Shown piece after piece: positions 29,987-46,327 of a stretch of 64,000 nucleotides of DNA. The notes below the pieces were generated by a model. It was not told where the DNA came from and did not search any database. It saw nothing but the letters and a program-made list of their open reading frames with translations. The DNA comes from Bacillota bacterium (GTDB taxonomy: Bacteria; Bacillota; Sulfobacillia; JAJZYS01; JAILZS01): positions 27,260-91,259 of the forward strand of contig JAILZS010000003.1 in NCBI GenBank assembly GCA_023512375.1, read 5' to 3'. The position numbers and the translations under genes were made by a program. Positions within the stretch are counted from its first letter, which is position 1, and each line of letters opens with the position of its first letter.

Positions 29987-30015
29987 TTGAGGCGCCTGGG
30001 GCGGGCTGGTACAGT
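29987..30015 (+). promoter_or_regulatory. putative sigma-A promoter TTGAGG-17 nt-TACAGT upstream of the gntR-family gene
   Basis: Near-consensus -35 and -10 hexamers with a 17-nt spacer, about 30 nt upstream of the GntR start codon. Confidence 0.4.
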
Positions 30016-30045
30016 CGAGGAAAGGTCGAATCCGAGGGGCGGAGC

Positions 30046-30825
30046 ATGCAGGGGGAGACGAACGACCGCCTGGCGGCGCTGTTCCGGACGGTGCCGGCCG
30101 GGCGAGGGTCGAACGCCATCGCCCGCCGCATCGAGCGCGCCATCCTGAACGGCGATCTCGCCGTGGGCGAGCGCCTGCCCAACGAGCGCGACCTGGGGCG
30201 CCTGTTCGGGGTCAGCCGCGCCACCCTGCGCGAGGCCCTGCGCATCCTCGAGGCCGACGGCCTCCTCGAGGTTCGCCGCGGCGTCACGGGCGGGGCGTTC
30301 GTATCCGTGCCGCGTACGGAGAGGGCGGCGAGCGCGCTCGCCGCCCTCATCCGCTTCCGCCAGGCCACCCCCGCCCATTTCTCCGAGTTCCGCCTCGCCT
30401 TCGAGGCGGAGAACGCCCGCCTGGCCGCGGCGAGAGCCACCCCGGAGCAGGTGGCCGCGATCGTGGAGGCGGCCGCCGCCGCAGCGGCCTGCGCCCATCC
30501 CGACGCGGCGTGGGAGGAGTTCATGGACCGGGACATCGACTTTCACGAGCGCGTGGCCGAGGCGACCGCCAACCCGATCCGGGTGGCGGTCATGCTGGGC
30601 GTACACGGCGCCTTCCGCCAGTCGTCGCGCGCCGTCGGCCGCCTCGACACGCCCGCATGGCGGCGCGAGCAGGCGGCCCAGCTGGAGGAGGTGGCGCGCG
30701 CCATCCGCCTGCGCCGGCCGCGCGCCGCCCAGCGCCACATGCAGCGCCACATCCTGAGCAACACGGCGGTGGCCGAGGCCATCTGGGCCCGGCCCTCGCC
30801 GGACGGCGAGGGCGGACAGGCATGA
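30046..30825 (+). CDS. GntR family (FadR/FCD subfamily) transcriptional regulator
   Basis: wHTH segment RLPNERDLGRLFGVSRATLREALRILEADGLLEVRRGVTGGAFV plus an all-helical FCD-like C-terminal domain. ATG 30046 (MQGE...). Confidence 0.8.
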   Translation: MQGETNDRLAALFRTVPAGRGSNAIARRIERAILNGDLAVGERLPNERDLGRLFGVSRATLREALRILEADGLLEVRRGVTGGAFVSVPRTERAASALAALIRFRQATPAHFSEFRLAFEAENARLAAARATPEQVAAIVEAAAAAAACAHPDAAWEEFMDRDIDFHERVAEATANPIRVAVMLGVHGAFRQSSRAVGRLDTPAWRREQAAQLEEVARAIRLRRPRAAQRHMQRHILSNTAVAEAIWARPSPDGEGGQA

Positions 30826-31385
30826 GGGAAGGGGAAGCCGCGGTGTACGCCGCCCCCGCCGCGGACGGCGCCGACCGGGCGTGGCTCGCGCAGCTGTGGC
30901 GCGACGGCTGGGGCGGAGACCCCATGTACAGCGGCGGGCGGGTCCACCACCTGGCGCGCTTGGAGGCCTTCATCGCCTGGGAGGCGGGGCGGCGCGTGGG
31001 CGCCGCCACGTACGCCCCGCCCGAGGACGGCGTGGCCGAGCTGGTCAGCCTCGACGCCCTCGTGCCGGGGCGGGGTGTGGGCAGCCTCCTCCTCCAGGCG
31101 GTGAGCGACGCCGTGCGCGCCCGCGGCGGCCGCGCCCTCAAGGTGGTGACCACGAACGACAACCTCGACGCCCTCGGCTTCTATCAGCGGCGCGGCTTCC
31201 GCCTCATGGCCCTCAGGCCCGGGGCCGTGGACGTTGCCCGCCGCCACAAGCCGACCATCCCCCTCGTGGGCCGGCACGGCATCCCCGTGCGCGACGAGCT
31301 CGTGCTCATCGCCGAGCTGGCGGGTGAGGAGCCGTCGTCGTTCCCGGACAGCGGGGGCGACGACGGTGCGGCTCCCGGATCTTAG
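30822..31385 (+). CDS. GNAT family N-acetyltransferase
   Basis: ATGA overlap with the gntR stop. Acetyl-CoA binding region (LVPGRGVGSLLLQAV...ARGGRALKVVTTNDN...FYQRRGF). Confidence 0.65.
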   Translation: MREGEAAVYAAPAADGADRAWLAQLWRDGWGGDPMYSGGRVHHLARLEAFIAWEAGRRVGAATYAPPEDGVAELVSLDALVPGRGVGSLLLQAVSDAVRARGGRALKVVTTNDNLDALGFYQRRGFRLMALRPGAVDVARRHKPTIPLVGRHGIPVRDELVLIAELAGEEPSSFPDSGGDDGAAPGS

Positions 31386-32260
31386 GCGGTGGGGGCCAGG
31401 CTGGCAAGGTCGGCGAGGACGGCGTCGATGCGCCGGCGGTCCGCTTCCTCCAAGGGGAGGCGGGGCGGACGCGTGTCGCCCACGGGGCGGCCCACCGCCG
31501 CCAGCCCGTACTTGATCGCCTGCACGAGGCGGGGCGTGGTGTCGTAGCGCAGGAGTGGAAGCATGCGCCGGTACAGAGCCCAGGCGCGCTCGTAGTCGCG
31601 TGTCCGCGCCGCCTCGTACAGGGCGACCGACGCCGCGGGTACGATGTTCGCCATGCCCGCGATCCAGCCCACGGCGCCGGCGAACATGCTTTCCAGCACC
31701 AGGTCGTCGGCGCCGGCCAGGACGCTCGCGCGGCAGGTCTGGATGAGCTCGGTCACGCGCCGCACGTCGCCGGAGAACTCCTTGACGGCGGCGATGCGCG
31801 CCACCCCCTCGAGCTCGCGCACGCGCTCGGCCGTGACGTCGGTCGACGTGTCGAAGGGGTTGTTGTAGATCACGATCGGCAGCCCCACGGCGTCGATGGC
31901 CCGGTAGTGCGCGACTACCTCCGCCCAGGTGGGCCGGTACTGGATGGGAGGCAGGGCCATGACGGCCTGGGCGCCGTGGTCGCGCGCGTGCTCGGCCCAG
32001 CGCACCACCTGGGCGGTGGTGGTCGCGGCCACCCCCACGACCACGGGGACGCGGCCCTTGGCCTCGGCCAGCACCGCCTCCACCACCGCGGCCCGCTCCC
32101 CGTCCGACAGCGAAGCGTACTCGCCGCATGTGCCGGCCGGCACCAGGCCGTGCACGCCCTCCCGGATGAGCCAGTCCACGTGGGCCCTCAAGGAGTCCAC
32201 GTCCACCTCGCCCGACTTGGCAAAGGGCGTCACCACGGCCACGTACACGCCTTCGAACAT
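31382..32260 (-). CDS. dihydrodipicolinate synthase (DapA/NAL) family lyase; candidate 1-pyrroline-4-hydroxy-2-carboxylate deaminase
   Basis: DapA-family N-terminus (GVYVAVVTPF...GVHGLVPAGTCGEYASLS) and Schiff-base Lys region (AAVKEFSGD). Adjacent to hydroxyproline and peptide genes. Confidence 0.75.
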   Translation of the reverse strand: MFEGVYVAVVTPFAKSGEVDVDSLRAHVDWLIREGVHGLVPAGTCGEYASLSDGERAAVVEAVLAEAKGRVPVVVGVAATTTAQVVRWAEHARDHGAQAVMALPPIQYRPTWAEVVAHYRAIDAVGLPIVIYNNPFDTSTDVTAERVRELEGVARIAAVKEFSGDVRRVTELIQTCRASVLAGADDLVLESMFAGAVGWIAGMANIVPAASVALYEAARTRDYERAWALYRRMLPLLRYDTTPRLVQAIKYGLAAVGRPVGDTRPPRLPLEEADRRRIDAVLADLASLAPTA

Positions 32261-32297
32261 CTCGTCTGCCCCCTTCGTCGCTCGCCTCTCCCGTCCC

Positions 32298-33389
32298 CTA
32301 GACCGTGCGCCAGGCCTTGGGGACGACGGTGAGGCGCTCGCTCCCGTCCTCCGTCACCACGAGCGTATCCTCGACCCGTGCCCCGCCCACGCCCGGCAGG
32401 TAGATGCCCGGCTCCACGGTGATCGTCATGCCCGGGCGAAGGACGTCGTCCTTGCCCTCCTCCGGCTCGCGGGCGGCAAAGGGGCGCTCGTGGATGTCGA
32501 GCCCCACCCCGTGGCCCGCCCCGTGCCCGAAGCGGTCGCCGTACCCGGCCGCCTCGATGATCCGCCGACACGCGCGGTCGACCTCGCTCGCCCGCACGCC
32601 GGGTCGCACGCTGGCGATGCCGGCGGCCTGCGCCTCGTGCACGAGATCGAAGATCTCCCGCAGGCGGGCAGGCACCTGCCCCACGCCGAAGGTCACCGTC
32701 TCGTCCGAGCGGTAGCCGTCGCTCAGGCCGCCGAAGTCCACCGTCACCATGTCGCCCGGGCCGATCACGCGCTCTCCCGGTCGGGCGTGGGGGAGCGAGC
32801 CGCGCTCCCCGGAGGCGACGATGGTGTCGAACCCGGGTGCGTCGAGGCCCAGCTCGCGCATGCGGTGCTCCAGCGCGACGGCCAGGGCCCGCTCCGTCCG
32901 ACCCGGCGCGGTGGGCAGAAGCTCCTCCAGGGCCTGGCCGGCCAGGTGGGCGGCCCGCCGGATGGCGGCGATCTCCCCGGCGTCCTTCACGAGGCGCAGC
33001 TCCTGCATGAGCTCCTGCGCCCCCACCCATTCCACCTGGGGCATGTGCTCCCGCCACTGCCGGAACATGGCCACCGGCAGGCGCTCGTCCTCGAAGCCGG
33101 CGCGGCGGATGCCGGCGTTGGCCACGACGTCCGCCAGGGTGGACAGGTAGGGCCGGCCGTGCTGCACCACCTCGTACCCGTCCGCCCCGGCCCCGGCCGC
33201 CTCCACGTACCGGAAGTCGGTGAGGAGCCACGCCCCGTCGGCCGACACCACCAAATACGACGAGGAGCCGGAGAATCCGGTGAGATAGCGCACCTGCGCG
33301 TTGCTCATGTGCTCGGGCGCGGCCAACACCAGGCCGTCCAGCCCCCGCTCCCGCATCGCCTCGCGCAGGCGCCTCAGGCGCTCTCGCAT
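32298..33389 (-). CDS. M24 family Xaa-Pro aminopeptidase / prolidase
   Basis: Creatinase-like N-domain plus pita-bread catalytic domain with metal ligands (DFGG...D, HGAGHGVG, E...E). Start at ATG 33389 (MRERLRRLRE...). Confidence 0.8.
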   Translation of the reverse strand: MRERLRRLREAMRERGLDGLVLAAPEHMSNAQVRYLTGFSGSSSYLVVSADGAWLLTDFRYVEAAGAGADGYEVVQHGRPYLSTLADVVANAGIRRAGFEDERLPVAMFRQWREHMPQVEWVGAQELMQELRLVKDAGEIAAIRRAAHLAGQALEELLPTAPGRTERALAVALEHRMRELGLDAPGFDTIVASGERGSLPHARPGERVIGPGDMVTVDFGGLSDGYRSDETVTFGVGQVPARLREIFDLVHEAQAAGIASVRPGVRASEVDRACRRIIEAAGYGDRFGHGAGHGVGLDIHERPFAAREPEEGKDDVLRPGMTITVEPGIYLPGVGGARVEDTLVVTEDGSERLTVVPKAWRTV

Positions 33390-33505
33390 GTCGATCGTCC
33401 CTTCCTTGCGCTCGCGTGGTCGCCCGCTCTCCAGGCGCCGTGGCACGGGCGCCGCCGCCCTCCGGGGGGGCGGCGCGCCCGCGCACGGCTAGCGGCCCGT
33501 ACCGT

Positions 33506-35251
33506 CTACCTGCACACGTAGATGTACTGGAACTGCACAGCCTTGATGGGGTGCAGGTACAAGTTGATGTCGCTCGGGCCGACGTTGTTCGTGATGAGCA
33601 TCTCCTGGGTCCCGAAGTACATGAACAGCCACGGTGCGTCGTGCTCCACGATCGCCTGCGCCTCGTCATACAGCTTGTAGCGCAGGGCGTCCTGCGAAGG
33701 CGGCAGGGAGTCCGCCTCGGCCACCAAGCGGTCCACCGTGGGATTGTTGTAGTTCGCCTCGTTGGAGCTCGCGAACACGTCGTGCTTGGGATCGTTCGGC
33801 GGCCCCTTGGCCACCAGGAGGTTGGCGAAGAAGTCGGACGGGTCAGGGTAGTCCTGCACCCAGCCGGCGTCACCGGCGTCGTAGGACGTCTGTGGCCCGC
33901 CCGTGGCCGGCGGGGAACCGTTCGTCCAATACACCGAGGTCGACACCGGCACGATCTGGATGTTCACGCCGATCTTGCGCCAAGCCTGCTGCAGGTAGGT
34001 GGCGATGGCCTCGTCCGTCTGGTCGTTGGGGATGTAATACTTGAAGCTCAGGCTCTTGTGGGCATACCCGGCCTTGGCCATCAGCGCCCGTGCCTTGGCC
34101 AGGTTGTAGGGGTACGGCTCTTGGCTGTTCACCCACCCGGGCATGCCGGGCGGCAGGACGCCGTCGTTGGGAAGGTAGCCGTGGCCGTTCACGGCCACCT
34201 TGATGAGGATCCGCTTGTCCACCGCGTAGTTGAGGGCTTGGCGAAGATACAGGTTGTTGAAAGGGGGCTCCGCCGTGTTGAAGTATCCGTATACCACCCA
34301 GTTGTACGGCTGCTGGTGGAACTCCACCGCCGTCTGCGGGTTCGACATGGCCTGAAGATACTGCGACGGTGTCGGCCCCCAGATGAGGTTCACCTGACCG
34401 CGCGTGAACTGCTCGAACTCGGTGGTCGGGTTTACGTTCACAGGGAAAACGATCTTATCGAGGTAGGGCTTTGGCCCCCAGTAGAGAGGATTGCGCACCA
34501 ACACGAGCTGCTTGTTGTGCTGCCAGGACAACAGCTTGAACGGTCCCGAACCGACGGCATGGTTCTCATAGGCATCATTCGCGTCAGTGGGCCCGTACTG
34601 CTTGATCACCTTCGGGTCGGCCACGCCTGTCACCATGAGTGCCATGTCGTTCAAGAAGAACGCCGCCGGCTTCACCAGGGTGATGCTGAGGACGTGGGGG
34701 CCCAGAACCTTTACGCCGCTCAGGGGGATGGGGTCGGTGTTCCACGCGGTGTAGGCGCGACTGGTCTTGGGCTCCTTCTGCAGAGCCGAGAACCCCTCCA
34801 CGTCGCCCAGGGTGAACGCCGCATAGGGCGAGTTGGCGCCCGGCTGGGAGACGCGCGCAAGGTTGAAGGCCACATCCGCCGCAGTCACCGGGTCCCCGTT
34901 GGAGAAGCGGGCATTTCGTAGATAGAACGTGTACGTGCGGCCGCCGTTCGTGATGGTCCAGCGGGTGGCCAAGCCGGGACCGATGGCGGAACTGTCCTTG
35001 TTGTATTCGACCAGCGTGTCGTAGATCGACTGCATGGCCATGAGCGACTGGCCGTCGTCCCAGTACACGGGGTCGAGGGTGGCGAAGTCGTTGGGCCACG
35101 CCATGGTGATCGTACCGCCGTACGTCGGCGTCGAGCAGAACGGTTGGCCGGCGGCCAGGGCGGGCGCGGTCGCCAGCGGCGCGCCCGCGCCGACGGCCAG
35201 GACGGAAGCCGCCGCAGCCGCCGCGCCGACCGCCCCCCATCGCCTGCCCAT
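33506..35251 (-). CDS. ABC transporter substrate-binding protein, family 5 (DppA/OppA peptide-binding type)
   Basis: Signal peptide MGRRWGAVGAAAAAASVLAVGAGAPLA followed by a family-5 SBP. Start at ATG 35251. Confidence 0.8.
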   Translation of the reverse strand: MGRRWGAVGAAAAAASVLAVGAGAPLATAPALAAGQPFCSTPTYGGTITMAWPNDFATLDPVYWDDGQSLMAMQSIYDTLVEYNKDSSAIGPGLATRWTITNGGRTYTFYLRNARFSNGDPVTAADVAFNLARVSQPGANSPYAAFTLGDVEGFSALQKEPKTSRAYTAWNTDPIPLSGVKVLGPHVLSITLVKPAAFFLNDMALMVTGVADPKVIKQYGPTDANDAYENHAVGSGPFKLLSWQHNKQLVLVRNPLYWGPKPYLDKIVFPVNVNPTTEFEQFTRGQVNLIWGPTPSQYLQAMSNPQTAVEFHQQPYNWVVYGYFNTAEPPFNNLYLRQALNYAVDKRILIKVAVNGHGYLPNDGVLPPGMPGWVNSQEPYPYNLAKARALMAKAGYAHKSLSFKYYIPNDQTDEAIATYLQQAWRKIGVNIQIVPVSTSVYWTNGSPPATGGPQTSYDAGDAGWVQDYPDPSDFFANLLVAKGPPNDPKHDVFASSNEANYNNPTVDRLVAEADSLPPSQDALRYKLYDEAQAIVEHDAPWLFMYFGTQEMLITNNVGPSDINLYLHPIKAVQFQYIYVCR

Positions 35252-35354
35252 GTTCAGCAAAACGGACACCGTCGAACCCTCCCTTGGTGTGCAGGCGCGT
35301 GGCCTGCACCGCGCTGGTCGTCGGGGTCGCGCGCCGCTCCCACCCCCTTTGCGA

Positions 35355-36287
35355 TCACGAGTACGTGATGCGGGGATCGAGAAGGGCATAGACCACGTCC
35401 ACCACCAGGTTCATGACCACGATGGCCGCCGAGGCGAACAGCACGACCCCCAGGATGGTCGGGACGTCGATCACCCGGATGGCGCTCGACGTCATGGCCC
35501 CCAGCCCGGGCCAGTCGAAGATCGTCTCCACCACCAATAGGCCCCCGAGGAGGTAGGCGAAGTCGAGCCCGAGGTAAGTGACCAGGGGGATGAGCGCGTT
35601 GCGCATCATGTGCCGCCACGTGACGCCCGCCTCCGACAAGCCCTTGGCGCGCGCCGTGCGCACGTAGTCCTCGCCCGCGATCTCGATCAGGCTCTGGCGC
35701 ACCAGGCGAGCGTCGTAGGCCGCGCTCGTGAGCGCGTACGAGAGGGCCGGAAGGACCACGTACCGGATGTCGGGGAAGGGCGCGGACCCGCCGAGGGGAA
35801 ACCACCCAAGGCGGTAGGCGAAGATGTACAGGAAGATGGAACCGACCGCAAATGTGGGCACCGAGACGCTGACGAGGGAAAGAACGACGAACGCCGTATC
35901 CGCCCACGTCCCCGCGCGGCGAGCGAAGAACACACCGAGCGGTACACCGATCGCCACCTCGAGGACGATGGCGGCCACCCCGAGATAGATGGAATGGGGC
36001 ACCGCCTGGGCCAACATCTGGGCCACGGGGAGGTGGAATTGGTAAGAGTAGCCGAGATCCAGGTGGGCGAGCTGACCCAGGTAAAGGCCAAATTGGGCCA
36101 CAATGGGTAGGTTGAGCCCGTAATTTCGTGTGATTTCCGCGATAGTGACCGGGCTTGCGTGATTCGTCCCGGCGATGACCTTCGCATAGTTAATCGGCAA
36201 TGCGTGCAGGATTAGGAAATTGACAAAGATGATGGCGAACATGGTGACAACGAGCATCGCCAGCCGACGCACGAGGTAGCTAGCCAC
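35355..36287 (-). CDS. ABC transporter permease (DppB/OppB-like)
   Basis: N-terminal YLVRRLAMLVV motif and EAA-loop region. GTG 36287 overlaps the upstream permease stop. Confidence 0.8.
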   Translation of the reverse strand: MASYLVRRLAMLVVTMFAIIFVNFLILHALPINYAKVIAGTNHASPVTIAEITRNYGLNLPIVAQFGLYLGQLAHLDLGYSYQFHLPVAQMLAQAVPHSIYLGVAAIVLEVAIGVPLGVFFARRAGTWADTAFVVLSLVSVSVPTFAVGSIFLYIFAYRLGWFPLGGSAPFPDIRYVVLPALSYALTSAAYDARLVRQSLIEIAGEDYVRTARAKGLSEAGVTWRHMMRNALIPLVTYLGLDFAYLLGGLLVVETIFDWPGLGAMTSSAIRVIDVPTILGVVLFASAAIVVMNLVVDVVYALLDPRITYS

Positions 36288-37212
36288 GGCGGACCACCGC
36301 CCCTCGCGTGTTGAGCGTGGCGTTGAGCGCCTCGAGCAGAAGGTTGAACCCGACTGTGGCAAGGCAGATAGCGATCGTGGGGAAGATCACCAACCAGGGA
36401 GCGATGTTCAGGTACGAGAGCCCTTCGGCGATCATCTTCCCCCAGCTCGGGATGGGCGTCGGCACACCGATGCCCAGGAAACTGAGCGTGCTCTCGTAGA
36501 TGATGTTGACCGGGATGGACATACCGGCCACGACGACGATCGGGGCGATGGCGTTGGGCACCAGGTGGCGCCAGATGATGCGCGAGGGGCGGGCGCCCAG
36601 GGAGCGGGCCACCTCCACGAAGGGCTGTTCGCGCAGGCTGAGCACCTGGCCGCGCGTGAAGCGGGCGTTCGTCGGCCAGCCCAGTAGGCCGATGGTCAGG
36701 TAGATGACCGGCACGCTGGGAGAGAGCACGGAGGCCACCAGGATGAGGAAGAACAGGGCCGGGAAGGCGAACATGACGTCCGTCACCCGCATGATGAGGC
36801 TGTCCACCCAGCCCCCGAAGTAGCCTGCGGCGACGCCCAGGGTGATTCCGATGGCGGCGCTGATGGCGCTGCCCAGCACGCCCACCTGGAGCGAGACGCG
36901 CGCGGCCCAGATGAGGCGGCTGAACTCGTCCCGCCCCAATTGGTCGGTGCCGAGGAAGAAGCCGTGGAGCGACCACTGGGGCGGAAGCGGCGCGTCGGTG
37001 GCGGACAGGCCCGTGATCGGATACATCTCCCAATACGGGTGGGTCATGAGGGCGGGAGCGAACACCGCCGCCGCCACCATGAGGCCCACGATGACCAGGC
37101 CTGGCGGCGCGAGGGGATGGGAGAGGAAGCGGCGCCACAGGGAGGGGCGAAGACCTTCGCGGGCCTCCACCTCCGTCGCCACGCCCGGCTCCGGGCGGAC
37201 GGCTGCGCTCAT
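36280..37212 (-). CDS. ABC transporter permease (DppC/OppC-like)
   Basis: N-terminal [11 protein letters not shown] motif typical of DppC. ATG 37212 abuts the S9 peptidase stop. Confidence 0.8.
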
Positions 37213-39149: not shown

Positions 39150-39302
39150 AGCTCTCCCCCCCGGTGGGCTGACGGGCGCGGCAGTCTTGTCGCCAGCGGA
39201 GCAAATTGTTAGACCTTATACCGTTAGGACCAACGTAGAGGCGGGCCGCCCCTCCTGTCAAGGGCGTCTCGACGCGGGTGGTGCGGGAGGTACGCGACTG
39301 CG

Positions 39303-41246: not shown

Positions 41247-41305
41247 TCATGGCAACAGGAGTCGGCGCTGCGGGCGAGGAACCGCCGACGCGAGGGGGTG
41301 GACGG

Positions 41306-42472
41306 ATGGCGAGCCGCGTCGTGGTGGTGGGGGGCGGTGTGATCGGCGCCGCCTGCACCTACTTCCTCACCGCCGCGGGAGCCGAGGTGACGCTCGTGGA
41401 GGCGCAGGTGGTGGGTGGGGGCACCTCCTCCCGCTGCGACGGCAACGTTCTGGCCATCGACAAGAGCCCGGGCTTCGACAGCCAGCTGGGCCTGCGAAGT
41501 CAAAAGCTCCTGGCCGAGCTCGCCCATGTCCTGGGCGACTTCGAGTACAGGAGCCCGGGAAGCTACCTCGTGTGCGACAACGACGACGAGGTGGAGCCCG
41601 CGCATACGTGGACCGAGGCGCTTCGGGAGTCGGGCCTGCCGGTCGAGTTCCTGGAGCGCGAGGAGGTGCACCGGCGCCTCCCCGACCTGGCGGCGGACGT
41701 GCCCGCCGGCCTGTACTGCGCCTCCGACGCCACCCTCAACCCCCTCCTCTACGTCCAGGGCCTGGTGGCCTGGGCACGGGAGCGGGGGGCTTCGGTGCGC
41801 GATCGAAGCCCGGTCGCCGCTCTGGACGCCAGTGACGGGAGGGTGCGGGGGGTGGTCCTGGCCTCGGGCGAACACCTCGCCGCCGACGCCACGGTGGTGG
41901 CCGCCGGCATCGCCACGCCCGCCCTGGTCGCCCCGCTGGGGATCGAGCTCCCCATCCGCCCCCGCAAGGGGCACCTGATCGTGTCGGCGCGGGGGCGGCG
42001 CTTCGGCGACGCCAAGGTGATGGAGTTCGGCTACCTCATGAGCAAGTTCGGACTCGAGCGCCGCGTCCCGCCCGACGTCGAGCGCTACGGCGTAGCGCTG
42101 GTGTACGAGCCGACGCGGGCGGGCAACTTCCTCCTGGGTTCGAGCCGCGAGTTCGTGGGCGAGGACACGGAGAGCGACCCGGAGGTGGTGCGCACCATCG
42201 CCCGCCGCGCCCTGCGCTTCTACCCGGGCATGCGCGCCGCCACTGTCGTGCGCACCTACGCCGGGCTCAGGCCGTGGACGCCCGACCACCTTCCGGTGGT
42301 GTCGGCGGCGGAGGGCGTGCCCGGCCTGTTCGTGGCAGCGGGACACGAGGGGGACGGCATCAGCCTGGCAGCGGTGACGGGGGAGATCGTGCGCGACCTC
42401 GTCCTGGGGCGCGAGACCGCCCTCGACGTCGCCCCGTTGCGCCTGGGCCGGTTCGGCCTCGGCGCCGCCTGA
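41306..42472 (+). CDS. FAD-dependent oxidoreductase (DAO family; D-hydroxyproline dehydrogenase / opine oxidase beta-subunit-like)
   Basis: VVVVGGGVIGAACTYFL dinucleotide-binding motif and DAO-fold C-terminus (GLRPWTPDHLPVV...GHEGDGI). The real gene is the C-terminal 388 aa of a 583-aa six-frame ORF. Confidence 0.8.
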   Translation: MASRVVVVGGGVIGAACTYFLTAAGAEVTLVEAQVVGGGTSSRCDGNVLAIDKSPGFDSQLGLRSQKLLAELAHVLGDFEYRSPGSYLVCDNDDEVEPAHTWTEALRESGLPVEFLEREEVHRRLPDLAADVPAGLYCASDATLNPLLYVQGLVAWARERGASVRDRSPVAALDASDGRVRGVVLASGEHLAADATVVAAGIATPALVAPLGIELPIRPRKGHLIVSARGRRFGDAKVMEFGYLMSKFGLERRVPPDVERYGVALVYEPTRAGNFLLGSSREFVGEDTESDPEVVRTIARRALRFYPGMRAATVVRTYAGLRPWTPDHLPVVSAAEGVPGLFVAAGHEGDGISLAAVTGEIVRDLVLGRETALDVAPLRLGRFGLGAA

Positions 42473-42499
42473 GGACCGCACGGAAAGGAGCGAACCCGC

Positions 42500-42790
42500 A
42501 TGACCGAGCGAGCCCCTTCGGGCCCCGAGACGACCGTGGTGTGCCGATGCGAAGGCGTCACCCTGGAAGAGCTGGCGCAGGCTTCGTCGCGCTACCGCGT
42601 CGCCTCCCTGCGCCAGCTCAAACTGGTGAGCCGGGCGGGCATGGGGATCTGCCAGGCCCGCGTGTGCGCGCCCGCCCTGGAGGCGCTGGCGCGCGGCTGG
42701 GGACTGGCCGCCGGAAGCGGCGAGCTCCGCACGCGGCCGCCCATCCGGCCGGTGGACCTGGCCACCCTGGCGGGAGGGGAAGAGGGGTGA
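42500..42790 (+). CDS. (2Fe-2S)-binding protein, BFD-like domain (small subunit of heteromeric opine/D-Hyp dehydrogenase)
   Basis: C-R-C-E...C-Q-A-R-V-C four-Cys pattern typical of BFD-like [2Fe-2S] domains. Confidence 0.6.
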   Translation: MTERAPSGPETTVVCRCEGVTLEELAQASSRYRVASLRQLKLVSRAGMGICQARVCAPALEALARGWGLAAGSGELRTRPPIRPVDLATLAGGEEG

Positions 42791-43131
42791 GCCGCATCGT
42801 CCACCCCCCGTCGTACCCGGCCGCTGCCCGCCCGCCCCGCGGCCGGACGGTGCGGTTCTGGTTCGACGACCGAGCGTACGAGGGGGTGGAGGGGGAGCCG
42901 CTCGCGGCCGCCCTGTGGGCGGCGGGGGTGCGCGACCTGGGCCGCACGGAGGCCACGGGGGCGCCGCGCGGTCTGTACTGCGCCATCGGCCACTGCTTCG
43001 AGTGCCGCGTGCGCGTGGGCGACCGGCCGGATCGACGCGCCTGCCTGGAGCCGGTGCGTGAGGGACTGCGCGCCTACCGCCAGGCCCCTCCCCCTCCCCT
43101 CGCCTCCGGCGACAGGGGGGCACCGGCGTGA
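42787..43131 (+). CDS. (2Fe-2S)-binding protein (HcnA / sarcosine-oxidase-alpha N-terminal-like)
   Basis: GLYCAIGHCFECRVRVG...RACLEPV cysteine cluster. GTG overlaps the upstream stop. Confidence 0.55.
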   Translation: MSRIVHPPSYPAAARPPRGRTVRFWFDDRAYEGVEGEPLAAALWAAGVRDLGRTEATGAPRGLYCAIGHCFECRVRVGDRPDRRACLEPVREGLRAYRQAPPPPLASGDRGAPA

Positions 43132-44366
43132 GCGCGGGCGGGGAGGGCGTCCTCGACCTGGCGGTGGTCGGTGCCGGGCCCGCCGGGCTGGCGGCGGCCG
43201 CCGCAGCGGGCGAGCGCGGCCTGGTCACGGCGGTGTTCGACGAATCCCCGGTGGCGGGAGGCCGCCTCCTAGGACAGCTCCATCCCGTCCCAGGCGGGTG
43301 GTGGGTGGGCCGGGCCGAGGCCGCGCGCCTCGTGGCCGCCGTCGAGGACCGGCCCACGGTGTCGTTGCGCCTGGGGGCAGGCGTCTATGCGGCGGCGCGG
43401 GAGGAGGGCGGCTTTCGCCTCCATGCCTCCGTCTCCCCCACCCCGGTGCGGGCGCGCTCGCTTCTCGTGGCCACCGGGGCGACGGAGCTCCCGGTGCCGC
43501 TTCCGGGCTGGAACCTGCCGGGCGTGATCACCGCGGGGGCGGCGCAGACCCTGGCCAACGTGTGGGGCGTGGAGGTGGGTAGGCGCTCTTTCGTGGTGGG
43601 CCTGAGCCCTCTCGCCTTCGCCGTCGCCCTGGAGCTGAGCGCCGCCGGCGTTCCCCCCGCCGCCATCGCCCCCCCCGCTCCGGGACCGGCCCTCGCCCAC
43701 CTCGGCCCCCCCGCGGCGCAGTGGCGAGAGGCCCTACGTCTTGCCCGCCTCGGGCCGGTCTGGGCGCGGCCAGGGGCCGCCCTCCTGGCCTCCCCCGCCC
43801 TGCGCCGTGCCCTCCTTCCCCGGCTGCCGCGCTCCGGCCTCCCCCTGCTGGGCAGCCGCCTGCGCCTCAACGTGGCGGTGGAGGCGGTCGTGGGGCGGGA
43901 GAGCGCCGAAGGGGTGCGCCTCAGGCGCCTGGACGGGGACGGACGGCCGGTGGGACCGGCTTGGCACGAGGCGGCCGACGCCGTCCTGTTGGCCGGCGGC
44001 CTTCGCCCCGTGCCCGACCTGTTGCGCGCGCTGGGCGCCCGCATGGCCACGGTGGAGGAATTGGGGGGCGAGGTGCCGGTCGTCGACCCCGACGGGGCGA
44101 CAACGGTACCGGGGCTGTATGCGGCGGGCAACGCCCTGGGCGTGGAGGGTGCGGCGGTGGCCATGGCGCAGGGTCGGCGCGCCGCCCTCGCCGTGGCTGC
44201 CCGGCTCGGGCGGGCGGACGGGCGAGCGCAGGCCGAGGCGCGGGCGGCGGTGGAACGCGCTCGGGCCGACGCTCCCTTCGCCTTCCACGCCGGCGTGGCC
44301 GAGGGCCATCGGCGCATCGCCGCCCTATGGCAGGAAGGGGGAGGGGGTGACGGGCGTGCGGTTTGA
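43128..44366 (+). CDS. FAD/NAD(P)-binding oxidoreductase (HcnB / opine oxidase alpha-subunit-like)
   Basis: LAVVGAGPAGLAAA and later GAG Rossmann motifs. GTG start overlaps the upstream stop. Confidence 0.65.
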   Translation: MSAGGEGVLDLAVVGAGPAGLAAAAAAGERGLVTAVFDESPVAGGRLLGQLHPVPGGWWVGRAEAARLVAAVEDRPTVSLRLGAGVYAAAREEGGFRLHASVSPTPVRARSLLVATGATELPVPLPGWNLPGVITAGAAQTLANVWGVEVGRRSFVVGLSPLAFAVALELSAAGVPPAAIAPPAPGPALAHLGPPAAQWREALRLARLGPVWARPGAALLASPALRRALLPRLPRSGLPLLGSRLRLNVAVEAVVGRESAEGVRLRRLDGDGRPVGPAWHEAADAVLLAGGLRPVPDLLRALGARMATVEELGGEVPVVDPDGATTVPGLYAAGNALGVEGAAVAMAQGRRAALAVAARLGRADGRAQAEARAAVERARADAPFAFHAGVAEGHRRIAALWQEGGGGDGRAV

Positions 44367-45366
44367 ACGCGTCCTGCGTACGATCGAGACCCACACGGGA
44401 GGCAACCCCACGCGCACCATCGTCTCGGGCATGCCGCGTATCCCGGGCGCCACCATGATGGAGAAGATGGAGTACGTGCGCACCCACCTCGACGGCCTGC
44501 GCCGCCTGCTCATGTTCGAACCCCGCGGGCACGGCGTCATGTCGGGCTGCATCCTCACCGAGCCGGTGACGCCTGGCGCCGACCTAGGCGTCGTCTACAT
44601 CGAGGTGGGCGGCTACCTGCCCATGTGTGGGCACGACACGATCGGCCTCGTCACCGCGCTGGTGGAGAGCGGCCAGGTGGAGGCGGCCGACGGCGCGGCG
44701 GAGGTGGTGCTCGACACCCCCTCGGGCGTGGTGCGCGCCCGCGCCCGGGTGGAGGGCGGGCGCTGCCTCGAGGTGGCGTTCGACAACGTGCCGTCCTTCC
44801 TCTACCGGCGAGACCTCCGGGTGGAGGTGCCCGGCGGCGTGGGCGAGGTGGCGCTCGACGTGGCGTGGGGGGGGAACTTCTACGGCCTGGTGCGGGCGGA
44901 GGACGTGGGGGTGCGCCTCGACCCCGGCGGGGCGCGAAAGGCCATCCGTCTGGCGCGGGCCATCCGCGCCGCCGTAGACCTCAACCACGCCGTCGTCCAC
45001 CCCCTCTTCCCCAACGTGCGCGGGCTCACGCACGTGGAGTTCTACGGCCCCCCGGACCGTCCGGACGCGGACGTGAAGAACATGGTCATCGTCCCCCCGG
45101 GGGGCGTGGACCGCTCGCCCTGCGGGACGGGGACGTGCGCCAAGGCGGCCGTCCTGCACGCGCGGGGGGAGCTCCCGGTGGGGGCGTCGTTCGTGCACGA
45201 GAGCGTGACCGGCGCCACCTTCCGCGCCACGGTCCTGGGGGAGGAACGGGTGGGCGACCTTCCCGCCGTGCGCGTGCGCATCGCCGGCTCGGCCCACGTG
45301 TACGGCGAGTCGACCTTTGTCCTCGAGGAGGACGACGAGCTACCGGCCGGGTTCTTCGTGCCCTAG
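44356..45366 (+). CDS. 4-hydroxyproline 2-epimerase (proline racemase family, two-Cys type)
   Basis: Both catalytic Cys motifs present (YLPMCGHDT and DRSPCGTGT). N-terminus VRFERVLRTIETHTGGNPTR typical of the family. Confidence 0.8.
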   Translation: MRFERVLRTIETHTGGNPTRTIVSGMPRIPGATMMEKMEYVRTHLDGLRRLLMFEPRGHGVMSGCILTEPVTPGADLGVVYIEVGGYLPMCGHDTIGLVTALVESGQVEAADGAAEVVLDTPSGVVRARARVEGGRCLEVAFDNVPSFLYRRDLRVEVPGGVGEVALDVAWGGNFYGLVRAEDVGVRLDPGGARKAIRLARAIRAAVDLNHAVVHPLFPNVRGLTHVEFYGPPDRPDADVKNMVIVPPGGVDRSPCGTGTCAKAAVLHARGELPVGASFVHESVTGATFRATVLGEERVGDLPAVRVRIAGSAHVYGESTFVLEEDDELPAGFFVP

Positions 45367-45379
45367 AGGAGGTGGCGGG

Positions 45380-46327
45380 ATGTGGACGGACAGCGCGGTG
45401 GAGGCCGTCGACCTGCACGTGGCGGGCGTGCCCGTGCGGGTGGTGGCGAACGACCGCCTAGGATGGTCGGCGGACGCCGGTCCCGACACGTGGCTGGCCC
45501 GCCTTCGCGCCGACGACGGCGGCGCGCGCCTGCGCCTCTCCCACGAACCGTGGGGGTTCGAGGGCATGCAGGGGGTCTGGCTCATGCCCGCCCATCGGCC
45601 CGGGAGCGCCGGTTCCGCCGTGTTCTGGGACGCCGACGGCTACGCCCCCTGGTGTGGGCGCGGCCTGGCCGCCTTGGCCGCCTTCCTGGTGCGCACGGGG
45701 CGGGCGCCGGCGGGGGAGGTGGCCGTGGACACCGCCCTGGGGACGGTGCGCCTGGAGGTGGAGGATAGCGGCGACGCCCCCGCCGTGCGCGTCGCCCCCC
45801 CGCCGGCGCGCGCCGTCGCGCGCGGCCTCCGCCTGGAAGGGCAAGGGTTCACCGTCGACCTGGCGGTGTGCGGCGGAAAGGCCTATGCCTTTCTCCCCTC
45901 CCCCGTCCCGATCGACCTGGAGGGGGCGCATGTCCTGGCCCTGCGGGAACGCGCGGCCTCCTTGCTCGAACCGGTGGCGCCGCTGGCCGGCCGCGCCGGC
46001 GACCTGGCCGCCCTGGTGTTCGCGGCCGCACCGGAGGGGGACCGCGTGCACCGCCTCTGCCCGGTGGGGGCGACGGGCCGCTTGCACCGCGCCCCCGGCG
46101 TCCGCCTGCTGGCCGCCTACGCCGCCCTCCGGCGAGGGGACGGAGAGGCGCTCCCCCTGGCCGCGGCCGGCCTTTCCGGCGTCCAGACCACGGTGGAGGG
46201 GGCGGACGACGGGCCGCGACCCGACGGCCAGGTGCGCGTCACCGTCGCCCTGCGGCCGCACGTCGTCGCCTTCCGCCGCTTCTACCACGACCCGTACGAC
46301 CCGGTGGCGCCGTTCCTCGTGCCGTAG
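45380..46327 (+). CDS. proline racemase-like protein, degenerate paralog (second catalytic Cys/Thr not evident)
   Basis: First Cys motif conserved (YAPWCGRG). The position equivalent to the second catalytic Cys reads AAAGLSGVQTT. 316 aa. Confidence 0.55.
   Translation: MWTDSAVEAVDLHVAGVPVRVVANDRLGWSADAGPDTWLARLRADDGGARLRLSHEPWGFEGMQGVWLMPAHRPGSAGSAVFWDADGYAPWCGRGLAALAAFLVRTGRAPAGEVAVDTALGTVRLEVEDSGDAPAVRVAPPPARAVARGLRLEGQGFTVDLAVCGGKAYAFLPSPVPIDLEGAHVLALRERAASLLEPVAPLAGRAGDLAALVFAAAPEGDRVHRLCPVGATGRLHRAPGVRLLAAYAALRRGDGEALPLAAAGLSGVQTTVEGADDGPRPDGQVRVTVALRPHVVAFRRFYHDPYDPVAPFLVP

Follow-up and report, generated by a model that had tools for sequence, protein, structure and literature searches.

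A divergent gene cluster that may couple a GH127 beta-L-arabinofuranosidase to hydroxyproline catabolism in an uncultured high-GC Firmicute

The 64-kb stretch of DNA analysed here (the window) has a GC content of ~73% and comes from an uncultured high-GC Firmicute. Genes were chosen by third-position GC and assigned to families with Pfam. Positions 31382-46327, both of which are true gene ends, hold two divergent operons (Table 1). The minus-strand operon starts with the gene for an S9 peptidase, followed by those for OppC-like and OppB-like permeases, a family-5 binding protein (SBP_5), an M24 Xaa-Pro peptidase and a dihydrodipicolinate synthase (DHDPS)-family protein. In the plus-strand operon, GH127 is the first gene and heads a tightly packed set for a four-subunit DAO/2Fe-2S/Pyr_redox dehydrogenase, a Cys/Cys proline-racemase-family epimerase (HypE) and a degenerate paralogue (PRS2); its downstream genes overlap by 4-11 bp, with a 4-bp overlap between the Fer2_4 subunit gene and each of its neighbours. 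All genes that a first-pass annotation had named in this interval were found, including the four dehydrogenase subunits (DAO beta, two small 2Fe-2S and HcnB-like alpha), and so was the GntR regulator that it had placed nearby. The GNAT gene between the GntR and DHDPS genes occupies the same position in L001, a related locus that is fully syntenic with that of the window. Comparison with L001 also bears on several gene starts: that of GntR is uncertain (the L001 orthologue has 259 aa), while the probable starts are 33389 for M24 (363 aa, matching L001), 36287 for the OppB-like permease (310 aa in the L001 gene call) and 37212 for the OppC-like permease, a start that overlaps the S9 stop by 4 bp and agrees with the L001 call.

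Table 1. Predicted genes and control region of the locus, with window coordinates, strand and Pfam support
Feature	Coordinates	Strand	Support
GntR/FCD-family regulator	29971..30825	+	GntR 9e-19, FCD 3e-17
GNAT acetyltransferase	30822..31385	+	Acetyltransf_1 8.5e-11
DHDPS/DapA-family protein, candidate Pyr4H2C deaminase	31382..32260	-	PF00701 2e-62
M24B Xaa-Pro (Xaa-Hyp) dipeptidase/aminopeptidase	32298..33446	-	Peptidase_M24 3e-67, Creatinase_N 2e-27
Family-5 solute-binding protein, Opp/Dpp-type ABC importer	33506..35389	-	SBP_bac_5 6e-83
OppB-like ABC permease	35355..36362	-	BPD_transp_1 5e-39, BPD_transp_1_N
OppC-like ABC permease	36280..37248	-	BPD_transp_1 2e-29, OppC_N 3e-8
S9 serine peptidase with PD40 beta-propeller	37209..39149	-	Peptidase_S9 (PF00326) 1e-37, PD40 6e-25
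Divergent control region	39150..39302	.	Common to both operons; conserved AT-rich box
GH127 beta-L-arabinofuranosidase, 647 aa	39303..41246	+	PF07944 1.5e-98, PF20736, PF20737
DAO-family FAD beta subunit, candidate cis-4-hydroxy-D-proline dehydrogenase	41306..42472	+	PF01266 3e-66
Small BFD-like [2Fe-2S] subunit (Fer2_BFD)	42500..42790	+	PF04324 1.6e-9, SO_alpha_A3
Small Fer2_4 2Fe-2S subunit	42787..43131	+	PF13510 5e-25
Pyr_redox_2 (SoxA/HcnB-like) alpha subunit of dehydrogenase	43128..44366	+	PF07992 3e-20
Pro_racemase epimerase, candidate 4-hydroxyproline 2-epimerase	44356..45366	+	PF05544 1.5e-110
PRS2, second divergent Pro_racemase paralogue	45377..46327	+	PF05544 53 bits, N-terminal half only

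The window protein has all three GH127 domains, and its best structural matches are Geobacillus GH127 (4QJY, E=6e-203) and Bifidobacterium longum HypBA1 (4e-136). In the alignment with HypBA1, the five catalytic and Zn residues E322, E338, C340, C417 and C418 correspond to E306, E322, C324, C402 and C403, and all are kept. The protein groups with proven beta-L-arabinofuranosidases; membership of the aceric-acid hydrolase branch was rejected (NCBIfam 384 bits vs a cut-off of 950). Judged by its sequence, the enzyme is intact. HypBA1 itself frees arabinose from Ara-Hyp, Ara2-Hyp, Ara3-Hyp and beta-Ara2 (PMC6085000).

The epimerase keeps the catalytic motifs MCGHD and DRSPCGTG, and its ligand sites 1 and 5 are Ser and Val, where true proline racemases (ProR) have Phe at both (PMC4364671). 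Its scores are nevertheless better with true proline racemases than with hydroxyproline (Hyp) epimerases (7pb3, 6e-84; NCBIfam ProR 360 bits vs 4-HypE 311 bits), and it reaches none of the NCBIfam equivalog cut-offs. The two ligand-site residues and the gene context point to Hyp rather than proline as its substrate, and the dehydrogenase is likewise presumed to be specific for Hyp. The Hyp 2-epimerase of the first-pass annotation stands as a candidate. The last gene of the interval was rejected as its gene: PRS2 has Gly in place of the second catalytic Cys, its best PDB match is 4juu (6e-12) and dN/dS is 0.33. The HypE-PRS2 tandem also occurs in L092, L093, L021/L025 and L019. Over its full length, the DAO subunit matches 1y56_B (9e-24), which is the beta subunit in the L-proline dehydrogenase complex of Pyrococcus, and it is 62-69% identical to the DAO proteins of L007, L092 and L093; the BFD-like subunit is conserved in L001, L007, L092, L093 and L019, and the Pyr_redox_2 subunit has an N-terminal match to the NCBIfam soxA family. 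As a whole, the dehydrogenase is similar to the alpha-beta-gamma-delta proline dehydrogenases of archaea, which occur in Thermococcus in ProR/ProDH clusters (PMC4364671). The DHDPS-family protein does not reach the NCBIfam equivalog cut-off for DapA (194 vs 206), its best PDB match is a 'putative DHDPS' of Pseudomonas aeruginosa (3na8), and it shares 60% identity with the DHDPS proteins inside the Hyp operons of L092 and L093, which end in an aldehyde dehydrogenase gene.

The M24 assignment as a prolidase in the first-pass annotation is supported (PDB proline dipeptidase 3q6d, 2e-82; also PepQ), and an M24 gene is found in all Hyp-linked loci examined except L016. The S9 assignment also held at the family level, but not as a prolyl oligopeptidase: the closest proteins are of acyl-peptide-hydrolase/Dpp5 type (8wt1 S9 peptidase, 5e-78; Deinococcus acyl-peptide hydrolase, 1e-51), a subtype that is not Pro-specific. 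No signal peptide was found in M24 or S9, and the latter is predicted to be cytoplasmic. The binding protein, with a signal-peptide-like segment (MGRRWGAVGAAAAAASVLAVGAGAPLATAPALA), is the sole exported protein of the locus; its nearest structures are peptide binders (8upi, 2e-69, then HbpA, OppA and DppA). As no other protein has an export signal, GH127 is taken to be cytoplasmic and its substrate must be imported; the locus has no importer other than this peptide-type one. Of the Dpp-type peptide transporter claimed earlier, the binding protein and two Opp-like permeases were recovered, but the 64 kb contain no ABC ATPase gene. A search for a linked alpha-ketoglutarate semialdehyde (KGSA) dehydrogenase and arabinose catabolism genes likewise found no aldehyde dehydrogenase of any kind and no araA, araB or araD within the 64 kb, so that the pathway as seen in the window is incomplete.

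Within the divergent region of 153 bp, an AT-rich box at 39204-39217, AATTGTTAGACCTT, is conserved. In the alignment of the window with L001, L007 and L008, the blocks AATTGT..GACCTT, CCAACGT and CTGTCAAGGGC are invariant. Reverse-complemented, the box core GTTAGACC reads GGTCTAAC, a sequence found inside a GntR-type palindrome, AATGGTCTAACCATT, that is upstream of the Hyp operon in L093. The box is found once in the window at 0 mismatches; allowing up to 3 mismatches gives 2 operator matches vs 1.17 expected, so that in the window taken by itself the match is statistically uninformative. The window GntR shares 47% identity with the one encoded directly before the GH127-less Hyp operons of L092 and L093. 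The GntR/FCD protein likely regulates the locus, probably as a repressor at the divergent region, a pairing of regulator and operator that we infer from these resemblances.

Gene order is conserved in relatives well beyond L001. L007 (76% GC) keeps S9<-|->GH127-DAO-BFD-Fer2_4 and L008 (68% GC) keeps S9<-|->GH127, so that the divergent S9-GH127 linkage persists across three diverged lineages, down to 55-69% protein identity. Sulfobacillus-type relatives (L092 and L093) have GntR-M24-DHDPS-DAO-BFD-Fer2_4-PyrRedox-HypE-PRS2-ALDH (aldehyde dehydrogenase) on one strand, without GH127, S9 or Opp genes. Judged from this gene content, the core is an operon for converting Hyp dipeptides to 2-oxoglutarate; the GH127, S9 and Opp genes were therefore later additions, with GH127 recruited into a Hyp locus. 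In a neighbour-joining tree, the window clade lies apart from the Hyp-linked GH127s of Bacillales and is sister to an arabinose-operon GH127, which implies at least two recruitments.

Based on these results, we propose with moderate confidence that the locus salvages arabinosylated Hyp peptides, that is, the Hyp-O-beta-L-arabinofuranoside cores found in hydroxyproline-rich glycoproteins (HRGPs) of plants or algae, for example extensin. With both operons firing from the one divergent region, the binding protein and two permeases, powered by ATPases encoded elsewhere, would import short Hyp-rich (glyco)peptides, which the cytoplasmic S9 and M24 Xaa-Pro/Xaa-Hyp peptidases would trim. GH127 would remove beta-L-arabinofuranose from Hyp, as HypBA1 does with Ara1-3-Hyp. 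The epimerase would then convert free trans-4-L-Hyp to cis-4-D-Hyp, the dehydrogenase would oxidise the latter to delta1-pyrroline-4-hydroxy-2-carboxylate (Pyr4H2C), the DHDPS-family enzyme would deaminate Pyr4H2C to KGSA, and an aldehyde dehydrogenase from outside the window would yield 2-oxoglutarate. Every substrate, the order in which peptidases and glycosidase act and the cargo of the transporter are putative. As neither GH43 nor GH121 is encoded at the locus, full-length Ara4-Hyp chains would be beyond this locus alone. The coupling of Hyp-O-arabinoside removal to Hyp catabolism, already suggested in the first-pass annotation, gains sequence-level support from the GH127 residues, the grouping of the enzyme and the gene order.

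The cargo of the transporter could also be sugar alone. Free beta-L-arabino-oligosaccharides (e.g., beta-Ara2), released outside by enzymes encoded elsewhere, would be imported and cleaved by GH127, while Hyp or Hyp dipeptides would enter apart; co-location would then reflect a common plant polymer, and GH127 would never meet a Hyp-linked sugar. Hydrolysis of imported beta-Ara2 is indeed the physiological role of cytoplasmic HypBA1 in B. longum (PMC7263609), a CUT1 sugar-type ABC transporter stands beside GH127 in Hyp-linked loci of Bacillales, and ATPase-less sets of SBP_5 and OppBC adjoin GH51 and GH127 in L009 and L010 without Hyp or peptide genes, a neighbourhood by which the family-5 transporter may carry sugar. 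We nevertheless consider this explanation unlikely: the window binding protein is only 22% identical to those of L009, its closest relatives of solved structure are peptide binders, the transporter genes appear from the operon layout to be co-transcribed with those of two peptidases, and the window contains no extracellular GH121, GH43 or GH146 able to release beta-Ara2.

It is quite improbable that horizontal transfer fortuitously placed a GH127 from a Firmicute arabinose operon as first gene before a Hyp operon, where it would persist with no functional link to its neighbours and work in general arabinan or arabinose use. Outside the clade, the closest GH127s do lie in araBAD/GH51 operons, conservation relative to L001 is lower for GH127 than for any other enzyme of the cluster (87% against 92-98%), and most GH127 loci lack Hyp genes (151 of 160 sampled). 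Hyp linkage was found in 7/80 genome and 2/80 metagenome loci and arabinose-operon linkage in 14/80 and 24/80, respectively, with none linked to both; none of the three neighbouring Hyp loci inspected starting from HypE has GH127. By our own estimate, however, chance adjacency within 10 kb is expected in ~0.4% of loci. GH127 is under purifying selection similar to that on neighbouring genes (dN/dS 0.18 vs L001), no terminator was found in the 59-bp gap before DAO, the promoter region is common to both operons, arabinose-catabolic genes are absent nearby, and the linkage is kept in three lineages. The pairing also has separate origins in Paenibacillaceae, Rossellomorea and another Bacillota MAG, where GH146 and additional peptidases are interspersed.

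The GH146 family includes proven Araf-beta1-Hyp hydrolases. GH127, with GH146 or with M24, M3 or DPP-IV peptidases, adjoins genes for Hyp breakdown in Cohnella, Paenibacillus, Rossellomorea and the Bacillota MAG, so that the pairing is also seen in soil bacilli unrelated to the window organism. Cohnella silvisoli has GH127, sugar ABC, M24, DAO, HypE, PRS2, DHDPS and ALDH, continuing with Fe-S subunits, PyrRedox, GH127, GH146, M3 and M24; Rossellomorea has HypE, PRS2, DHDPS, ALDH, two M24, GH127, ABC, GH127, GH146 and M3; and the MAG has three DPP-IV-like S9 peptidases, GH127 and HypE. Such loci add GH146, extra Pro-specific peptidases and the aldehyde dehydrogenase absent from the window. Given its persistence in three diverged lineages and independent recurrence in other Bacillota, the co-location is beyond chance; the same functional combination has, judging from gene content, been assembled separately in Cohnella/Paenibacillus, Rossellomorea and the MAG.

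To our knowledge, collagen carries no arabinofuranose, which counts against use of the locus on non-plant Pro/Hyp peptides (collagen, gelatin or microbial) through a proline racemase and a D- or L-proline dehydrogenase, with GH127 acting on an unrelated or unknown glycoside. This explanation, which accords with the epimerase scores, the likeness to archaeal proline dehydrogenases and the S9 and M24 peptidases, neither of which is plant-specific, is very doubtful, given the Ser/Val ligand sites, the non-DapA DHDPS-family gene of the window and the ALDH of related operons, which together mark a route from Pyr4H2C via KGSA to 2-oxoglutarate that proline would not need, and the recurrence of GH127 and GH146 in such loci, which it leaves unexplained.

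No description of a bacterial locus coupling GH127 to Hyp catabolism was found in the literature searched, in agreement with the first-pass annotation. Known HRGP systems harvest sugar alone, whereas the proposed locus would use Hyp too. If our proposal is correct, the locus would represent an undescribed bacterial route for consuming the arabinose-covered hydroxyproline found in extensins of plant cell walls.

Comparative genomics supports the coupling of glycan removal to hydroxyproline (Hyp) catabolism that the first-pass annotation had predicted for this locus. The interval of 29.9-46.4 kb is made up of two divergent transcription units around a 153-bp intergenic region (39150-39302). Because the GC content of the window is ~73%, raw ORF lists were full of spurious frames; genes were picked by third-position GC and assigned by Pfam, and the genes and coordinates named earlier were borne out with some corrections. 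Downstream of the gene for the FAD-dependent dehydrogenase subunit (DAO), spacing is 27 bp or less, with overlaps of 4-11 bp from the Fer2_BFD gene through the first Pro_racemase gene. No terminator-like structure was found in the 59-bp gap between the GH127 and DAO genes; the promoter/terminator scan, whose counts equal the shuffled expectation, is informative solely for that absence. The flanking genes are housekeeping genes (Nramp, SerA-like, DegV, FakA-like, PlsX and a Suf cluster).

Genes of the locus and related features in other hydroxyproline loci
Feature	Sequence	Position	Strand	Remark
GntR/FCD regulator	window	29971-30825		Pfam; just past the DHDPS gene
GNAT gene	window	30822-31385		Pfam; just past the DHDPS gene
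DHDPS-family protein	window	31382-32260	minus	Pfam; last in transcription order
M24 Xaa-Pro peptidase with Creatinase_N domain	window	32298-33389/33446	minus	Pfam
Family-5 solute-binding protein	window	33506-35389	minus	Pfam
OppB-like permease	window	~35355-36287	minus	Pfam
OppC-like permease	window	~36280-37212	minus	Pfam
S9 serine peptidase with PD40 propeller	window	37209-39149	minus	first in transcription order
GH127	window	39303-41246	plus	first gene of the plus-strand unit
DAO-family flavoprotein	window	41306-42472	plus	Pfam
BFD-like 2Fe-2S protein (Fer2_BFD)	window	42500-42790	plus	Pfam
Fer2_4 2Fe-2S protein	window	42787-43131	plus	Pfam
Pyr_redox_2 protein	window	43128-44366	plus	Pfam
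Pro_racemase-family protein	window	44356-45366	plus	PF05544, strong match
PRS2, divergent Pro_racemase paralogue	window	45377-46327	plus	Pfam, weak match
PRS2	L092 (Sulfobacillus-type operon)	11023-12033
PRS2	L093 (Sulfobacillus acidophilus MAG)	8465-9475
PRS2	L021 (Rossellomorea)	712-1665
PRS2	L025 (Rossellomorea)	1056-2009
PRS2	L019 (Cohnella silvisoli)	3263-4276
Cys/Cys Hyp epimerase	L019	2222-3220
GH146	L019	11984-14281		directly after GH127, before the M3 gene
GH146	L021	17521-19842		directly after GH127, before the M3 gene
GH146	L025	17524-19845		directly after GH127, before the M3 gene

The GH127 protein possesses the complete three-domain architecture of its family, i.e., a catalytic (alpha/alpha)6 domain, a middle domain and a C-terminal beta domain (PF07944, 1.5e-98; PF20736, 1.8e-22; PF20737, 8e-22), with residues 8-637 covered. 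Full-length alignments are obtained with the Geobacillus GH127 enzyme 4QJY, its closest solved homologue (E=6e-203), and with HypBA1 of Bifidobacterium longum (E=4e-136); the match to the GH146 enzyme 5opj is far weaker (1.7e-10). In the HMMER alignment to 3wkw, E322, E338, C340, C417 and C418 of HypBA1 correspond to E306, E322, C324, C402 and C403 of the window protein, so that all five residues of the catalytic acid/base Glu, the nucleophile Cys and the Zn-binding Glu/Cys3 site are kept, and they are invariant across the four members of its clade. In this type of Glu/Cys-Zn site, the nucleophile is a Cys (PMC10850190). For B. longum HypBA1, hydrolysis of Araf-beta1-Hyp and of beta-1,2-linked Araf has been shown (PMC6085000). 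The window protein groups with the characterised beta-L-arabinofuranosidases and not with the aceric-acid hydrolase or GH146 branches, and it is predicted to be a beta-L-arabinofuranosidase of the HypBA1 type. Identity as an aceric-acid hydrolase was ruled out (NCBIfam, 384 bits vs. a cut-off of 950), as was pseudogenisation, the ORF being intact. Relative to the 87% identical orthologue in the related locus L001, dN/dS is 0.18, which indicates that selection maintains the gene; the corresponding values for the DAO and Pyr_redox subunits are 0.17 and 0.15.

Other genes of the locus resemble the bacterial trans-4-hydroxy-L-proline pathway (summarised in PMC4364671), which in Pseudomonas and Sinorhizobium consists of HypE, a D-Hyp dehydrogenase (LhpB/E/F type), a deaminase of delta1-pyrroline-4-hydroxy-2-carboxylate (Pyr4H2C; LhpC) and an alpha-ketoglutarate semialdehyde (KGSA) dehydrogenase (LhpG). 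The Cys/Cys epimerase, heteromeric flavin/Fe-S dehydrogenase and DHDPS-family protein (the candidate Pyr4H2C deaminase) of the window agree with it in enzyme family and in the predicted order of reactions. The clusters described in those organisms have amino-acid transporters and no glycoside hydrolase; compared with them, the window locus lacks the KGSA dehydrogenase and has an additional, degenerate epimerase paralogue. The FAD beta subunit, two small 2Fe-2S subunits and Pyr_redox alpha subunit that had been proposed to form a heteromeric D-Hyp dehydrogenase were all found by Pfam (DAO, Fer2_BFD, Fer2_4 and Pyr_redox_2) and agree with the heteromeric type in domains and gene order, the DAO subunit matching 1y56_B over its full length; the substrate is putative. 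None of the cluster proteins reaches the curated cut-off of an NCBIfam equivalog model. For the DHDPS-family protein (PF00701, 211 bits), the DapA equivalog scores 194 vs. a cut-off of 206, and the best PDB match is an uncharacterised DHDPS-like protein of P. aeruginosa. The candidate epimerase (PF05544, 370 bits) keeps the catalytic Cys/Cys motifs MCGHD and DRSPCGTG and scores below the cut-offs of ProR (360/556 bits), 4-HypE (311/376) and T3LHypD (320/540); its raw PDB scores favour true proline racemases over Hyp epimerases. At ligand site 1, only proline racemases have Phe, whereas natural Hyp epimerases carry Ser or Val, and racemases also have Phe at site 5, which precedes the second Cys by ten residues (PMC4364671). 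With Ser at site 1 and Val at site 5, the window enzyme is HypE-like by these criteria, and its nearest named relatives, from Sulfobacillus, are 67-69% identical. A similar arrangement is found in Thermococcus litoralis, where a Hyp-accepting epimerase of the proline-racemase branch lies beside a four-subunit DAO/Fe-S/Pyr_redox dehydrogenase (PMC4364671); unlike the window locus, that cluster is archaeal, tied to L-proline and 3-Hyp metabolism and without a glycosidase, and its epimerase carries Trp instead of Val at site 5.

The strongest argument for the predicted Hyp pathway in the window comes from the context of related operons. In the Sulfobacillus-type operon L092 and in the Sulfobacillus acidophilus MAG L093, orthologues 45-69% identical to the window proteins are found in one operon with the order GntR-M24-DHDPS-DAO-BFD-Fer2_4-Pyr_redox-HypE-PRS2-aldehyde dehydrogenase, which is predicted to be the full enzyme set from trans-4-Hyp to 2-oxoglutarate plus a prolidase. 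The window locus has this gene set minus the aldehyde dehydrogenase. The first-pass annotation had called for a search for a linked KGSA dehydrogenase, and none emerged, as no aldehyde dehydrogenase (PF00171) is encoded in the whole 64-kb window; the gene is present in L092, L093, C. silvisoli and Rossellomorea (L021).

Linkage of GH127 to these genes is conserved among relatives. L001 is syntenic across the whole locus and both flanks, L007 (76% GC) keeps S9<-|->GH127-DAO-BFD-Fer2_4 and L008 (68% GC) keeps S9<-|->GH127 and the start of DAO, with proteins of L007 and L008 55-69% identical to those of the window; the S9<-|->GH127 core is thus conserved in all three. The Sulfobacillus-type operons L092 and L093 contain no GH127, S9 or Opp genes, and in the neighbour-joining tree the window-clade GH127 is sister to a GH127 of a classical araBAD/GH51 operon. 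These two observations indicate that the Hyp-dipeptide operon is older and that GH127 was added to it together with a peptidase and an importer. The nearest relatives outside the clade sit in this araBAD/GH51-linked operon type; unlike the window gene, the GH127 genes of such operons in Bacillota and that of the Geobacillus stearothermophilus enzyme (4QJY) are accompanied by genes for arabinose isomerase, kinase, epimerase, GH51 and sugar transporters.

Genome and metagenome contigs scanned with an alignment of the GH127 clade served as background samples, in which none of the matches listed exceeded 55% identity or extended the contigs of the L007 and L008 lineages. They show that the combination recurs independently. 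Among the 80 GH127 loci listed from species-representative genomes, all at most 49% identical, seven, from six genomes, have Hyp genes within 10 kb, and two of the 80 listed from metagenomes are Hyp-linked; Hyp genes accompany none of the 38 arabinose-operon-linked GH127 loci among the matches listed in both samples. By a rough estimate that is not a computed control and assumes one Hyp locus per ~5 Mb genome, a random gene would lie within 10 kb of a Hyp locus in ~0.4% of cases. In Cohnella silvisoli, a co-directional array of ~32 kb starts with GH127, a two-component system, a sugar ABC importer, M24 and DAO, continues with HypE, PRS2, DHDPS, aldehyde dehydrogenase, two Fe-S subunits and Pyr_redox, and ends with a malic-enzyme-like gene, GH127, GH146, an M3 oligopeptidase and M24; the first part of this array is also found in a Cohnella MAG and in Paenibacillus sp. 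PL91. Two Rossellomorea species combine HypE, PRS2, DHDPS, aldehyde dehydrogenase, an amino-acid symporter and two M24 genes with GH127, a sugar ABC importer, a further GH127, GH146 and an M3 peptidase. In a Bacillota MAG, GH127 and HypE are accompanied by three DPP-IV-like peptidases encoded in tandem. The GH146 proteins of the Bacillales loci consist of a GH127-type catalytic domain plus DUF4986/DUF6805 and match BT0349 with 2e-169; two characterised GH146 members, XeHypBA1 and Bll4HypBA1, cleave the Araf-beta1-Hyp linkage (PMC10850190). When Hyp-linked GH127s were compared with the others, three alignment columns stood out (control mean, 0.2), most clearly Trp332, eight residues past the Zn ligand Cys324, which is present in 11/11 Hyp-linked proteins and 16/71 others (mostly Phe). 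As Trp also occupies this position in the Geobacillus enzyme of the arabinan cluster, this residue is probably a phylogenetic signal and not a specificity marker. In C. silvisoli, the malic-enzyme-family gene (L019 8492-9952) is part of the Hyp operon, with the gene for the dehydrogenase alpha subunit on one side and GH127 on the other. A different Hyp-locus variant is found in L091 (74% GC; HypE 75% identical), where a 1012-aa BNR/Sortilin-Vps10 repeat protein (6950-9988) is encoded between the DHDPS-like gene and HypE and no D-Hyp dehydrogenase or GH127 gene occurs within 10 kb.

The intergenic regions between S9 and GH127 of four lineages have invariant blocks in common, the most striking of which is AATTGT..GACCTT (window 39204-39217). 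The core of this box, read as its reverse complement GGTCTAAC, sits in the middle of a perfect palindrome of the GntR type, AATGGTCTAACCATT, which fits TnGTnnnACnA and lies in the gap that separates the GntR gene from the Hyp operon in L093; L092 has a similar site, and the window GntR protein is 47% identical to the L092/L093 regulators. These similarities suggest that one putative repressor controls both divergent operons, GH127 included. The case for the operator box is its cross-lineage conservation; inside the window there are two matches at three or fewer mismatches vs. 1.17 expected, which is not significant alone, and one-repressor control is for that reason offered as a suggestion.

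Directly 3' of the Cys/Cys Hyp epimerase gene, PRS2 is found in four lineages, in loci with or without GH127. Its catalytic pair is Cys/Gly in the window, Phe/Gly in L093, Tyr/Gly in Rossellomorea and Ser/Gly in Cohnella, and Cys/Cys solely in L092, while a dN/dS of 0.33 indicates some remaining constraint. PRS2 could be a pseudoenzyme partner, have a dehydratase-like activity or act as a regulator, and, conserved yet catalytically degenerate, might add a new functional element to Hyp metabolism.

For uptake, the locus encodes an Opp/Dpp-type importer set of SBP_bac_5, OppB-like and OppC-like proteins, and the nearest solved relatives of the binding protein are peptide binders. No ABC_tran gene for an OppD/OppF ATPase occurs between 29.9 and 46.4 kb, and L001 lacks one too. 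Such ATPase-less sets recur (window 33506-37248; L001; L091 13107-16689; L009/L010 1364-9984), which suggests that they share orphan ATPases. No CUT1-type sugar ABC importer for beta-Ara2 is found in the window locus, but the Bacillales variants of Hyp-linked loci do have SBP_bac_1 importers. Neither GH121 nor GH43 was found, the locus genes and all large ORFs of the window falling in other Pfam families; no extracellular glycosidase is encoded in the locus, and no arabinose pathway genes were found in the window. Among the locus proteins examined, solely the binding protein carries an export signal; GH127 has no signal peptide and, like the S9 and M24 peptidases, is predicted to be cytoplasmic. 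The S9 enzyme belongs to a subtype without proline specificity.

Based on these features, we propose, and consider rather probable, that the locus serves the salvage of glycopeptides from hydroxyproline-rich glycoproteins (HRGPs). Short Hyp-rich peptides with one to three beta-arabinofuranoses would be imported by the SBP_5/Opp-type transporter, trimmed by the S9 and M24 peptidases and deglycosylated by GH127, and the Hyp would be oxidised to KGSA. Glycopeptide import is the simplest reading because GH127 is predicted to be cytoplasmic, an extracellular glycosidase and a sugar importer are absent from the locus and the binding protein is of the peptide type; the order of peptidases and glycosidase, the transporter cargo and all substrates are inferred. 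The main alternative, that the sugar and peptide branches draw on a common source but on separate cargo, appears unlikely. Sugar cargo is conceivable, since in L009/L010, which have no Hyp genes, two ATPase-less SBP_5/OppBC sets lie between a GH51 gene and a GH127 gene, suggesting that some so-called peptide transporters of the SBP_5 type carry arabino-oligosaccharides; the binding proteins of these sets are, however, only 22% identical to that of the window, and orthology of the window transporter with them was rejected. Chance adjacency of GH127 and Hyp genes is very improbable, and so is a locus for non-plant Pro/Hyp peptides. Within HRGP glycopeptide salvage, we advance only tentatively, as somewhat doubtful, the proposal that arabinosylated Hyp-peptides are imported whole by the Opp-type transporter and deglycosylated by GH127 in the cytoplasm, with the amino acid and not the sugar as the main prize.

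The hypBA1-hypBA2-hypAA system of B. longum resembles the window in its cytoplasmic GH127, with the same catalytic Glu/Cys-Zn site, and in its target, the Hyp-linked beta-L-arabinofuranosides of extensin-type glycoproteins (PMC7263609, PMC6085000), which is predicted for the window. Unlike the window, it serves arabinose harvest only, by means of GH121 and GH43 enzymes that act outside the cell and a beta-Ara2-specific CUT1 transporter, and includes no peptidases and no Hyp catabolism, whereas GH127 is combined in the window with an importer of the peptide type, two peptidases and a predicted Hyp oxidation pathway. With xehypBA1-BA2-AA, Xanthomonas euvesicatoria degrades Ara4-Hyp stepwise to Ara-Hyp and arabinose, and, as a peptidase gene does in the window, a putative prolyl oligopeptidase gene adjoins, whose product, according to the authors, might attack Hyp-rich HRGPs; that gene is frameshifted, and no Hyp catabolic genes were reported (PMC6085000). 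The enzyme of this cluster that hydrolyses Ara-Hyp is today assigned to GH146 (PMC10850190). X. euvesicatoria cannot use arabinose, and why the cluster is kept was left open by its authors (PMC6085000). The B. longum and Xanthomonas systems remove the glycan only, and then use or discard it (PMC7263609, PMC6085000, PMC5928203). A neighbourhood study of the proline-racemase superfamily mentions peptidases and transporters but not glycosidases (PMC4113996), and a genome survey of Latescibacteria lists GH127 and HRGPs with no linked locus (PMC4454575). The literature searched, mostly without subscription journals, holds no further description of a GH127/GH146-Hyp/prolidase locus, in keeping with the earlier claim that the coupling had not been described; all components belong to known families, and judged against that literature the combination and its recurrence are apparently new.

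SufB of the window is 84-99% identical to metagenomic relatives and 71-74% identical to the nearest named genera (Calditerricola, Paenibacillus, Alicyclobacillus and Kyrpidia). Together with the relatives of the epimerase and the FakA/DegV/PlsX flank, this places the window in an uncultured, very high-GC lineage of Bacillota. In the Suf region, an 829-aa ORF (51620-54109, minus strand) holds a SufS-like Aminotran_5 domain at residues 445-815 and is probably an over-extended high-GC ORF; its upstream half overlaps a high-GC3 frame (52888-54507) that may be SufD. Other features of the window include a large catabolic island at 1549-20411, with two MmgE/PrpD-family proteins, a xylose-isomerase-like TIM barrel, family I and III CoA-transferases, Amidohydro_2, two SDRs, a MaoC hydratase, a cyclase, an isochorismatase, a 3-hydroxyisobutyrate-dehydrogenase-like protein and a Peripla_BP_6 branched-chain-type ABC importer. 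A gene for a peptidase S58 (DmpA/beta-aminopeptidase-like; 58025-59074, plus strand) adjoins an ECF-type sigma factor gene (56859-57524), and in a lower-GC stretch (~66-68%) at the end of the window an ORF of ~538 aa (61555-63171, plus strand) with a Cas12f1-like TNB domain encodes a TnpB-like, transposon-associated nuclease.

Extensins and related HRGPs are among the most recalcitrant components of the plant cell wall, and, to the best of our knowledge, microbial turnover of their protein part is essentially undescribed. With its beta-L-arabinofuranosidases, Pro/Hyp peptidases, importer and predicted route from Hyp to 2-oxoglutarate, this type of locus, which recurs both in cultured bacteria (Cohnella, Paenibacillus and Rossellomorea) and in thermophile-like Bacillota that are uncultured, provides a concrete and genetically testable model. 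From gene context, the model predicts substrates for some members of the very large GH127/GH146 families. It also provides candidates for the enzymatic cleavage of peptides that are Hyp-rich or glycosylated, suggests why bacteria unable to grow on arabinose have beta-L-arabinofuranosidases and bears on how carbon and nitrogen are cycled in soil and compost and on enzymatic processing of plant protein. If whole-glycopeptide import is true, a bacterial pathway that consumes the plant extensin protein backbone would be defined for the first time; this reading would account for beta-L-arabinofuranosidases in organisms without growth on arabinose and would name peptidases of the S9, M24, M3 and DPP-IV types as candidates for Hyp-rich sequences.
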